From: Escherichia coli
Lineage (GTDB): Bacteria; Pseudomonadota; Gammaproteobacteria; Enterobacterales; Enterobacteriaceae
Strand: one strand, 5' to 3'
Assembly: GCF_003334355.1 (NCBI RefSeq)
Contig: NZ_QOWP01000035.1
DNA: 35,354 nucleotides
Shown piece after piece: positions 9,334-27,140 of this stretch. A program made the translations under genes and the position numbers. Each line of letters opens with the position of its first letter. Positions within the stretch are counted from its first letter, which is position 1. Below the pieces are notes generated by a model. That model saw only the letters and a program-made list of their open reading frames with translations, was not told the origin of the DNA and ran no database searches.

Positions 9334-9503
9334 AATGGCTCACTCAAGCTTGCTCACGATTGATTCCAGTAACAAACCGTATTGTGTAATTATTTCTATA
9401 GCAGCTCGCTATATAGGCTTGTATACATCGAATAATTTGAAAATCAAAGAGATAGGTAGATTTTCACTCGAAAGTAGTATTACGTGTAAGTGAGGAGTAA
9501 TTA

Positions 9504-9517
9504 TTGTTCGGTATCAA
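9504..9517 (-). promoter_or_regulatory. FNR box of the dmsA promoter (TTGAT-N4-AACAA on minus strand)
   Basis: Plus strand ttgttcggtatcaa = minus TTGATaccgAACAA, close to the FNR consensus TTGAT-N4-ATCAA; about 170 bp upstream of dmsA ATG; dmsABC is a known FNR-activated anaerobic operon. Confidence 0.6.
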
Positions 9518-9525
9518 AGGGAGAC

Positions 9526-9551
9526 AAAAAAAGCGCCCGCAGGCGCTTTTT
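9526..9551 (-). terminator. Rho-independent terminator downstream of serS
   Basis: aagcgcc-cgca-ggcgctt hairpin flanked by A6 and T5; on the minus strand the hairpin is followed by a U-run, 21 bp after the serS stop. Confidence 0.75.
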
Positions 9552-9571
9552 AGATTCAGAAAAATTGGGTA

Positions 9572-23841: not shown

Positions 23842-24063
<222 letters not shown>

Positions 24064-24244: not shown

Positions 24245-24273
24245 TTGACCGTTTTACTCCAACTCCCTATAGT
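24245..24273 (+). promoter_or_regulatory. Sigma70 promoter of serW (TTGACC-17 bp-TATAGT)
   Basis: -35 TTGACC (24245-24250), 17-bp spacer, -10 TATAGT (24268-24273), GC-rich discriminator agcgccccg, AT-rich upstream region; typical stable-RNA promoter about 40 bp upstream of the tRNA. Confidence 0.7.
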
Positions 24274-24316
24274 AGCGCCCCGTTGCCACCCATGAGGTTT
24301 GGCAGCAAAACAATTT

Positions 24317-24404
24317 GGTGAGGTGTCCGAGTGGCTGAAGGAGCACGCCTGGAAAGTGTGTATACGGCAACGTATCGGGGGTTCGAATCCCCCCCTCACC
24401 GCCA
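24317..24404 (+). tRNA. serW: tRNA-Ser (anticodon GGA), 88 nt, class II with long variable arm
   Basis: GGTGAGGTGTCCGAGTGGCTGAAGGAGCACGCCTGGAAAGTGTGTATACGGCAACGTATCGGGGGTTCGAATCCCCCCCTCACCGCCA: 7-bp acceptor stem, anticodon loop CTGGAAA, T-loop GGTTCGAATCC, encoded CCA. Confidence 0.95.
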
Positions 24405-24417
24405 TATTTAAAGAAGA

Positions 24418-24445
24418 GCTCGTACGAAAGTGCGAGCTTTTTTTT
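24418..24445 (+). terminator. Rho-independent terminator downstream of serW
   Basis: gctcgtac-gaaa-gtgcgagc hairpin (8-bp stem, GNRA tetraloop) followed by T8 (24438-24445). Confidence 0.8.
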
Positions 24446-24447
24446 CG

Positions 24448-24652
24448 CATTTTATCTGTCTGTACGGCAGTGAACATGGTGGGTGGAGTATGTTACCTGT
24501 GAATTTCTAAGCTGCCTGTACGGCAGTGAACGCCAACTTTCACAGCCTTTGCAAGATTGTTCCTTTCTAAGCTGCCTGTACGGCAGTGAACGTTCGCTGC
24601 AACCGCTAGCCAAGACGGTAGGTTTTTCTAAGCTGCCTGTACGGCAGTGAAC
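24448..24652 (-). CRISPR. Orphan type I-F CRISPR array: 4 repeats (one degenerate), 3 spacers, no adjacent cas genes
   Basis: Perfect 28-bp repeats at 24504-24531, 24564-24591, 24625-24652 (plus strand TTTCTAAGCTGCCTGTACGGCAGTGAAC; minus strand GTTCACTGCCGTACAGGCAGCTTAGAAA, the I-F repeat with CTGCC/GGCAG hairpin); degenerate terminal repeat 24448-24475 keeps the 3' 16 nt; spacers 28, 32 and 33 bp; repeat orientation puts the leader on the clpA side. Confidence 0.9.
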
Positions 24653-24800
24653 TCAAATACTACACGTTTAGCCCGTTGTTAATAAAGCAAAACCATCCCA
24701 TTCTCCTGCAGCACCCTTTTTTATCCTTACCTTCCAGCAGCACTAATTATCAACAACTTACCTTCACCTCCAAAAATAGGGTTTTCACCGTTCCACCCCA

Positions 24801-24840
24801 TAAATAAAAAGTCCGTAACCTCTTTCGAGATTACGGACTT
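24801..24840 (-). terminator. Rho-independent terminator downstream of clpA
   Basis: aagtccgtaa (24809-24818) / ttacggactt (24831-24840) 10-bp inverted repeat; A/T-rich run 24801-24810 gives a U-tract on the minus strand; 24 bp after the clpA stop. Confidence 0.7.
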
Positions 24841-24863
24841 GACCAACCTACCTGACAATCAGA

Positions 24864-27140
24864 TTAATGCGCTGCTTCCGCCTTGTGCTTTTGTGCACTC
24901 TGGAATCCGTAAGTCAGCTCATTTTTCGCTTTATCCAGTGCGACGGTGACCTGACCGCCGTCCACCAGCGAACCAAACAGCAGTTCGTTGGCGAGCGGTT
25001 TTTTCAGGTTGTCCTGGATGACACGCGCCATCGGACGAGCGCCCATTGCCCGGTCGTAACCTTTCTCGGCCAGCCAGTTACGCGCTTCCTGGCTCACTTC
25101 CAGAGAAACACCTTTCTGATCCAGCTGAACCTGCAACTCGACGATGAATTTATCCACCACCTGATGGATCACGTCGGTTGACAGATGATCAAACCAGATA
25201 ATGTTGTCGAGACGGTTACGGAATTCCGGTGTAAAGATCTTCTTGATCTCTTCCATCGCATCGGTGCTGTTATCCTGGTGGATAAGACCAATGGATTTGC
25301 GCTCAGTTTCCCGTACCCCGGCGTTGGTGGTCATCACCAGCACCACGTTACGGAAGTCTGCTTTGCGTCCGTTGTTATCGGTCAGCGTACCGTTATCCAT
25401 CACCTGCAACAGAATATTGAACACGTCCGGGTGCGCTTTCTCGATTTCGTCCAGCAGCAGCACCGCATGTGGATGCTTGATGACCGCATCAGTCAGCAAA
25501 CCGCCCTGATCAAAACCAACGTATCCCGGAGGCGCACCAATAAGACGGCTGACGGTATGGCGTTCCATATACTCGGACATATCAAAGCGCAGAAGCTCAA
25601 TGCCCAAAGCTTTCGAAAGCTGTACCGTCACCTCTGTTTTCCCGACCCCGGTAGGGCCGGCAAACAGGAACGAACCAACCGGTTTATGTTCGTGACCTAA
25701 ACCTGCACGCGCCATCTTAATGGCTTCAGTCAGCGCCTCAATGGCTTTATCCTGACCGAAGACCAGCATTTTCAAGCGATCGCCGAGGTTTTTCAGGGTA
25801 TCACGATCACTCTGAGAAACACTCTTCTCTGGAATGCGTGCAATACGGGCCACCACGGACTCAATATCCGCCACATTAACGGTTTTCTTGCGTTTGCTTA
25901 CCGGCATCAGGCGTGCGCGAGCGCCCGCTTCGTCGATAACATCAATGGCTTTATCCGGCAGATGACGATCGTTAATGTATTTCACCGCCAGCTCTACCGC
26001 CGCACGCACCGCTTTTGCGGTATAACGCACGTCGTGGTGCGCTTCATACTTCGGTTTCAGGCCATTGATGATTTGAACAGTTTCTTCGATCGACGGTTCA
26101 GTAATATCAATTTTCTGGAAGCGACGCGCCAGAGCACGGTCTTTCTCGAAAATGTTGCTGAACTCCTGATAGGTTGTCGAACCAATTACACGAATTTTAC
26201 CGCTGGAGAGCAACGGTTTGATTAGGTTAGCCGCATCGACCTGACCACCAGACGCTGCACCCGCACCGATAATGGTGTGGATCTCATCAATAAACAGGAT
26301 GCTGTTAGTGTCCTGCTCCAGCTGCTTGAGCAACGCTTTAAAACGTTTTTCAAAGTCGCCGCGATATTTTGTGCCCGCTAACAGAGAACCGATATCGAGA
26401 GAGTAAATCGTACAGTCAGCCATCACTTCCGGCACATCGCCCTGAACAATTCGCCAGGCAAGACCTTCCGCAATCGCGGTTTTACCGACACCAGATTCCC
26501 CCACCAGCAGCGGGTTGTTTTTACGGCGACGGCAGAGAACCTGAATAGCACGCTCCAGCTCCTTCTCACGACCAATCAGTGGGTCGATTCCGCCCACGCG
26601 CGCAAGCTGATTCAGGTTCGTCGTGAAATTCTCCATACGTTCCTCCCCACCAGCTTGTTCTTCGCTGTTTGGCTGGCTGCCAGGATCAGAAGACTGTGTC
26701 GGCTCGTCTTTACGCGTGCCATGAGAGATAAAGTTCACCACATCGAGACGGCTGACTTCATGTTTACGCAACAGATATGCCGCCTGCGACTCCTGTTCGC
26801 TAAAGATAGCGACCAGAACGTTTGCACCGGTAACCTCATTGCGACCGGAGGACTGGACATGGAAGACCGCACGTTGCAGTACACGCTGAAAACTCAGCGT
26901 CGGCTGTGTGTCGCGCTCCTCTTCACTGGCAGGCAGAACGGGTGTGGTTTGTTCAATAAAGGCTTCCAGTTCCTGACGGAGCGCAACCAAATCCACAGAA
27001 CACGCTTCCAGCGCCTCCCGGGCAGATGGGTTACTGAGCAGCGCCAGTAACAAGTGCTCGACGGTCATAAACTCATGACGGTGCTCGCGCGCTCTGGCGA
27101 AAGCCATATTTAAACTGAGTTCCAGTTCTTGATTGAGCAT
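24864..27140 (-). CDS. clpA: ATP-dependent Clp protease ATP-binding subunit ClpA, 758 aa
   Basis: ORF track 24864..27155 (TTG-initiated) trimmed to ATG at 27140 ([19 protein letters not shown]); two AAA+ modules (GESGVGKT and GPTGVGKT). Confidence 0.95.

Follow-up and report, generated by a model that had tools for sequence, protein, structure and literature searches.

An orphan type I-F CRISPR array with spacers matching cas3f and cas1f between serW and clpA of Escherichia coli

Organization of the infA-clpA locus

The stretch of Escherichia coli DNA analysed here (35,354 nucleotides of contig NZ_QOWP01000035.1, assembly GCF_003334355.1; hereafter the window) contains, in this order, infA (23845-24063), serW, a short CRISPR array and clpA. 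The serW gene, encoding tRNA-Ser(GGA), lies on the plus strand at 24317-24404, on the leader-distal side of the array; it was called by ARAGORN and by the Rfam tRNA model, and PGAP annotates it as tRNA-Ser in E. coli strain CP53, which is 100% identical to the window over 601 bp around the array. Next to serW the terminator scan gave a terminator-like hairpin (24410-24445, plus strand), the terminator of serW; because an A-run borders it on one side and a T-run on the other, it could also end transcription of the array from the minus strand. The array itself spans 24448-24652 (205 nt), and this segment, read on the plus strand, is a type I-F CRISPR array in reverse complement. It is followed by a leader (24653-24808, minus strand) and by the intrinsic terminator hairpin of clpA (24809-24840, minus strand, from the terminator scan), which marks the upstream boundary of the leader. 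The clpA gene (24864-27140, minus strand, from the PGAP annotation of the identical locus and the list of open reading frames) is co-oriented with the array and lies upstream of it. The original prediction had placed the array between the serW and clpA terminators, and the tRNA call together with the two hairpins bears this out. All 5,426 complete E. coli genomes searched have this locus. Elsewhere in the window, between dmsA and serS, an Rfam match (9424-9558, plus strand, 140 bits) corresponds to STnc130, an ordinary known enterobacterial sRNA.

Seven other clpA-side leaders were aligned with that of the window, and the alignment supports a leader on the clpA side. Over the ~60 nt that adjoin the first repeat, five of the seven, including the leaders of both cas-positive strains, show no difference from it, and those of O157 and strain 51489 differ at two or three positions. 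A sigma-70 consensus scan of 24250-24950 returned no promoter, and inspection of the leader by eye gave weak candidates only. The upstream half of the leader exists in two haplotypes, AACGGTGAAAACCCTATTTTTGGAGGTGAAGG in the window, O157 and strain 51489, and GGAGGTTCAGACCCTTTTTTTAATGATGATGG in K-12 and with allele 2 of the cas operon. Among the aligned leaders, the K-12 type is present in both cas-positive and cas-less strains and the window type only in cas-less ones.

Repeats and spacers of the array

An exact search of the window identified three copies of the 28-nt repeat GTTCACTGCCGTACAGGCAGCTTAGAAA, all on the minus strand (24504-24531, 24564-24591 and, leader-proximal, 24625-24652), none being expected from shuffled sequences. 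Each of them scores 50.1 bits against the Rfam family CRISPR-DR4 (RF01317), for which the gathering score is 35. A fourth, degenerate copy, GTTCACTGCCGTACAGACAGATAAAATG, ends the array at 24448-24475 on the same strand; it has six mismatches, with 19 of the first 20 nt matching and the last 8 nt diverging. The starts of the repeats are 56, 60 and 61 nt apart, and the minus-strand spacers, read in crRNA sense, measure 33 nt (spacer 1, leader-proximal, 24592-24624), 32 nt (spacer 2, 24532-24563) and 28 nt (spacer 3, the oldest, 24476-24503). Three perfect repeats and one degenerate repeat of type I-F, with spacers of exactly these lengths, had been predicted on the minus strand, and exact search and spacer extraction reproduced them to the base. 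The three perfect copies are predicted to fold into a hairpin (.....(((((.....)))))........, a 5-bp stem and a 5-nt loop at positions 6-20) of -8.6 kcal/mol, and in the terminal repeat the substitution G17A breaks this Cas6f hairpin, leaving a predicted fold of -1.4 kcal/mol.

The repeats match the I-F consensus GTTCACTGCCGTAYAGGCAGCTTAGAAA and are identical to those that flank the I-F cas operons of cas-positive E. coli (loci L001 and L011). The array therefore belongs to the type I-F repeat family (CRISPR-DR4, also named 'CRISPR4' or Ypest), the class to which it had been assigned by the original prediction. PGAP leaves it without a CRISPR annotation in most genomes and it is short, features that would also suit a chance or REP-like cluster of repeats near a tRNA terminator, with no relation to CRISPR. 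That reading deserves practically no credence, since it is refuted by the exactness of the repeats, by an Rfam score well above threshold and by a repeat and a leader identical to those of bona fide I-F arrays.

Absence of cas genes from the window and comparison with cas-positive strains

That the 35 kb hold no cas gene had been claimed from the sequence, and tblastn searches of the window with the six I-F Cas proteins of a cas-positive E. coli agree, as nothing rose above noise and the best two Cas3f 'hits' were the translated spacers 2 and 1 themselves. At the 100%-identical locus of CP53, PGAP annotates only housekeeping genes, and no cas gene, within 20 kb on either side. Because there are no Cas homologues in the window nor in these flanks, the array is classed as orphan; the element is an I-F array and not an I-F system.

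In cas-positive strains the order of the locus is infA - array - serW - cas6f-csy3-csy2-csy1-cas3f-cas1f - array - clpA. Alignment shows that the window retains the clpA-side array and its leader and lacks both the operon of 8.6 kb and the array on the infA side. The window has no other repeat remnant; none was detected between infA and serW when 3 mismatches were allowed in a 16-mer, and the segment 24128-24235 is not homologous to either the array or the leader on the infA side of L001.

Two alleles of the I-F cas operon (cas-F) occur among the complete E. coli genomes, allele 1 in 201 of them (UTI89, IHE3034, S88 and others) and allele 2 in 40 (B7A and strain 503440); they are 92% identical across the operon and 93.8% identical in cas3f. 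The most divergent gene between the alleles (L001 compared with L011) is csy1 (cas8f), at 83% identity versus 92-96% for the other genes and down to 63% in 200-nt segments, a pattern suggestive of recombination, or of pressure to diversify, in the subunit that recognizes the PAM. Both alleles also carry a lone repeat-like unit, GTAAACTGCCGTACAGGCAGCT, in the cas3f-csy1 intergenic region (L001 7284-7311, plus strand in the locus, and L011). This unit is antisense to the cas operon, contains the full Cas6f hairpin and might serve in regulation or in the binding of Cas6f. In the cas-positive strain 729_021014_1_4, csy2 (L001 4758-5681) has an internal stop and is annotated by PGAP as a pseudogene. 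Not every cas3f-positive genome has an intact I-F system.

Spacers match the cas3f and cas1f genes

Spacer 1 matches cas3f from nt 634, on the template strand. It agrees with allele 2 at 31 of 33 positions (mismatches at 11 and 33, 5'-CC PAM, strain 503440) and with allele 1 at 29 of 33, the mismatches being at 2, within the seed, and at 11, 19 and 20, again with a CC PAM. Spacer 2 matches cas3f from nt 684, on the coding strand, with 31 of 32 identities in allele 2 (mismatch at 19, CC PAM, strain 503440) and 29 of 32 in allele 1, where the PAM is TC. The protospacers of spacers 1 and 2 fall within codons ~200-240 of cas3f, on opposite strands and 49 nt apart. The match of spacer 3 lies around codon 43 of cas1f and has a 5'-CC PAM in both alleles. 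The E. coli I-F PAM, which PMC3506596 gives as GG on the strand that is targeted, reads 5'-CC on the strand identical to the spacer; it is present for all three spacers in allele 2 and for spacers 1 and 3 in allele 1.

The length of 28 nt predicted for spacer 3 stands, with the refinement that it is a 32-nt cas1f spacer which has lost 4 nt (CCCGCCCACC having become CCCACC); K-12 keeps the 32-nt form, TTCACAGGTAACATACTCCACCCGCCCACCAT. This 32-nt form has mismatches at positions 4, 6 and 10 against allele 2 and at 4 and 6 against allele 1. All three spacers thus derive from I-F cas genes and are anti-cas spacers, as the original prediction had said of orphan arrays of this kind and in agreement with PMC2886076, PMC8616872 and PMC5972030.

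No perfect match to spacer 1 or spacer 2 was found among the sampled cas-F alleles. In spacer 1, position 33 (C) agrees with allele 1 of cas3f and positions 2, 19 and 20 agree with allele 2, and this mixed agreement implies that the donor allele is not among the sampled ones. Some genomes match spacer 1 at positions 1-32 only, the spacer of the window being 33 nt long.

Because plasmids are the main targets of the I-F arrays found in cas-positive E. coli (PMC2886076), the array might be taken for an ordinary memory of phage or plasmid immunity that outlived its cas genes, with incidental matches to cas. The database searches speak against it. By BLAST, the three concatenated spacers had no match in INPHARED (50,697 phage records) and, in PLSDB (72,556 plasmids, E<=10), only one chance 24-nt match to Streptomyces (E=9); exact 20-mers of spacers 1 and 2 were absent from IMG/VR. 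Since, in addition, the three spacers all map to cas3f or cas1f with a correct PAM in at least one allele, we consider an immunity memory of this sort very improbable. As regards a present-day vector for the invasion by I-F cas genes, the protospacers were seen in no PLSDB plasmid or INPHARED phage.

Distribution among complete E. coli genomes

In the 5,426 complete genomes surveyed, the array with spacers 1, 2 and 3, scored at a coverage of at least 80%, is present in 346. Spacers 1 and 2, at identities of at least 99%, were detected in 473 and 521 genomes, respectively, and the family of the cas1f spacer in 1,775, of which 327 have the 28-nt variant of the window and about 1,447 the 32-nt form. 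The cas3f gene is found in 241 genomes (about 4%). Matches to spacer 2 were distributed in identity bands, with 521 array copies and 40 plus 201 cas3f-only matches adding up to 762 genomes. Given that the protospacer bands take in all of the 241 genomes with cas3f, none of them carries spacer 2 (0/241), and none of the 521 genomes with spacer 2 carries cas3f (0/521). Spacer 2 and cas3f are, therefore, strictly mutually exclusive across complete E. coli genomes.

The tail of the terminal repeat, ATAAAATG, is common to all orphan arrays examined. The tail ending in CAGATAAAATGCGAAAAAA was observed in the window, K-12, O157, ST131, S1-KEN-07-A (L007), strain 51489 (L008), KMi012 (L009) and L010, and the cas-positive strains have other terminal tails, TATTCACA and TCTTCAAA. 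Beside this same tail, the orphan array of O157 contains a cas1f spacer, that of ST131 a cas3f spacer and that of strain 51489 four spacers from cas3f and cas1f, each of all these spacers having one mismatch and a CC PAM. A scan of GTDB representatives for exact matches to the terminal-repeat junction, in which E. coli is represented by a cas-positive genome, returned one E. coli-like MAG with a K-12-type array.

Several orphan arrays have peculiarities of their own. In KMi012 (L009 712-990) the array of the window has a tandem duplication of spacer 1, and two copies of spacer 1 are found in 21 genomes; strain 51489 has a tandemly duplicated unit of cas3f spacer and repeat (L008 755-900). The leader-proximal spacer of the S1-KEN-07-A orphan array, GCACACGTCGAGCTGGTGGGGATTAATGCTGG (L007 535-566), has no match with up to 10 mismatches in either cas-F allele and is an exception to the anti-cas rule. 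Strain 51489 also harbors an insertion of ~230 nt between serW and the array (L008 405-640), with a second hairpin resembling the serW terminator and tRNA-like/RtT-type repeat sequence, and an annotated hypothetical ORF (531-989) extends from this insertion into the array. An 'RtT sRNA' is annotated at this locus in several other genomes.

Proposed function and origin of the array

A barrier against I-F cas genes was proposed from comparative genomics (Touchon & Rocha 2010, PMC2886076). Furthermore, native orphan arrays are constitutively expressed, interfere with plasmids carrying I-F cas genes and block the uptake of these genes, according to the accounts of Almendros 2016 (Nat Microbiol 1:16081) given in PMC8616872 and PMC5972030. 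Following this literature, the array of the window would be transcribed on its minus strand from the clpA-adjacent leader, and the transcript would be inert as long as Cas6f and the Csy proteins are absent. Upon arrival of an I-F operon, the incoming Cas6f would process the resident transcript by cutting each repeat after G20, the Csy complex would take up the anti-cas crRNAs, and Cas2-3 would then degrade the incoming cas3f and cas1f DNA. Priming could add further anti-cas spacers, and the net outcome would be an I-F system unable to establish itself.

The spacers of the window seem to differ in their fitness for such a role. Spacers 1 and 2 look competent against cas3f of the allele-2 type, since they have a correct PAM and no mismatch within positions 1-8. 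Both may be weakened against allele 1, and the protection conferred by this array may be partial, because the commonest allele (201 of the 241 genomes) presents spacer 2 with a TC PAM and spacer 1 with a seed mismatch at position 2. Spacer 3 is probably defunct, as it has only 28 nt, is mismatched at 4 and 6 and lacks a 3' hairpin; it and the terminal repeat look decayed.

Such decay, with 4 nt lost from spacer 3 and the hairpin of the terminal repeat broken, would also be expected of a passive scar, that is, of a complete I-F ancestor in which self-targeting spacers caused autoimmunity, deletion of the cas operon was selected and the array persisted without function. This idea, which PMC2886076 cites from Díez-Villaseñor et al., would likewise accommodate the imperfect match of the spacers to all sampled cas alleles, as well as the single terminal repeat and junction common to the examined orphan arrays, as if from one old deletion. 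However, three repeats of the window are perfect and spacers 1 and 2 are conserved in hundreds of genomes at the high identity given above, and the lineage-specific anti-cas spacers that stand beside the same terminal repeat in other strains require later acquisitions and thus repeated encounters with cas genes. The phylogenetic counter-arguments of Touchon & Rocha (PMC2886076) and the interference by native orphan arrays, as reported of Almendros 2016 in PMC8616872 and PMC5972030, also weigh against a functionless relic, which we regard as unlikely. An origin as a scar is compatible with a barrier function at present, and the scar may describe how the array originated.

As spacers 1 and 2 have protospacers only 49 nt apart and on opposite strands, and no sampled allele matches them perfectly, they might record a burst of primed adaptation against an unsampled or recombinant cas-F allele, with the B2 allele 1, now dominant, whose PAM for spacer 2 has changed from CC to TC and which has the seed mismatch for spacer 1, as an escape variant that could invade lineages bearing the array. 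We think this scenario quite unlikely. The 200-nt segment containing both protospacers is 90.5% identical between the alleles, compared with 93.8% for the whole of cas3f, and is no outlier beside several other segments; the escape of allele 1 found no specific support.

Taken as a whole, the element is very probably the known E. coli orphan I-F array with spacers copied from I-F cas genes. The array is in itself already known and ordinary, a leftover I-F array carried by most E. coli between serW and clpA. It is a textbook case of a CRISPR turned against the cas genes of its own kind and helps to explain why I-F systems are found in so few of the complete E. coli genomes (241/5,426). The window confirms an annotation that PGAP usually omits, and its spacer variant, spacers 1, 2 and 3 with spacer 3 in the 28-nt form, constitutes a lineage marker for about 330-350 complete genomes.

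Comparison with known systems

The orphan CRISPR4.1-2 array of the E. coli clpA-infA locus was reportedly described by Díez-Villaseñor et al. in 2010. It is named CRISPR4.1-2 of the CRISPR-III locus by the Mojica group (PMC3903273) and 'CRISPR3 anti-CRISPR' by Touchon & Rocha 2010 (PMC2886076). The array of the window resembles it in its location, its 28-nt repeat, its conserved terminal repeat and its leader. The window also lacks cas-F genes, the array has spacers matching cas1 and cas3 of the I-F system with the I-F PAM, and its cas1f spacer is one that is also found in the CRISPR4.1-2 arrays of K-12 and O157. Nothing essential differs, the window having one spacer variant, with a cas1f spacer of 28 nt and a leader-proximal spacer of 33 nt. 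As far as can be read from sequence, it agrees with the orphan CRISPR4.1-2 array in every respect.

The complete I-F CRISPR-Cas systems of E. coli (LF82, UTI89 and B7A, with the order CRISPR4.1 - cas1f-cas3f-csy1-csy2-csy3-cas6f - serW - CRISPR4.2) resemble the window in having the same repeat and clpA-side leader, in being oriented alike and in lying next to clpA, whereas the window has neither the cas operon nor the second array between infA and serW. The cas-positive arrays are also longer, with 7-15 spacers (L001 and L011), and none of the spacers of the window is among them.

Finally, self-targeting spacers drive the loss or degeneration of cas genes in other CRISPR systems. The array of the window is similar to these in that its spacers match cas genes of its own species and do not coexist with intact cas genes. 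Unlike in such systems, the targeted genes are absent from the window, and published experiments assign to the array a protective barrier role and not mere autoimmunity.
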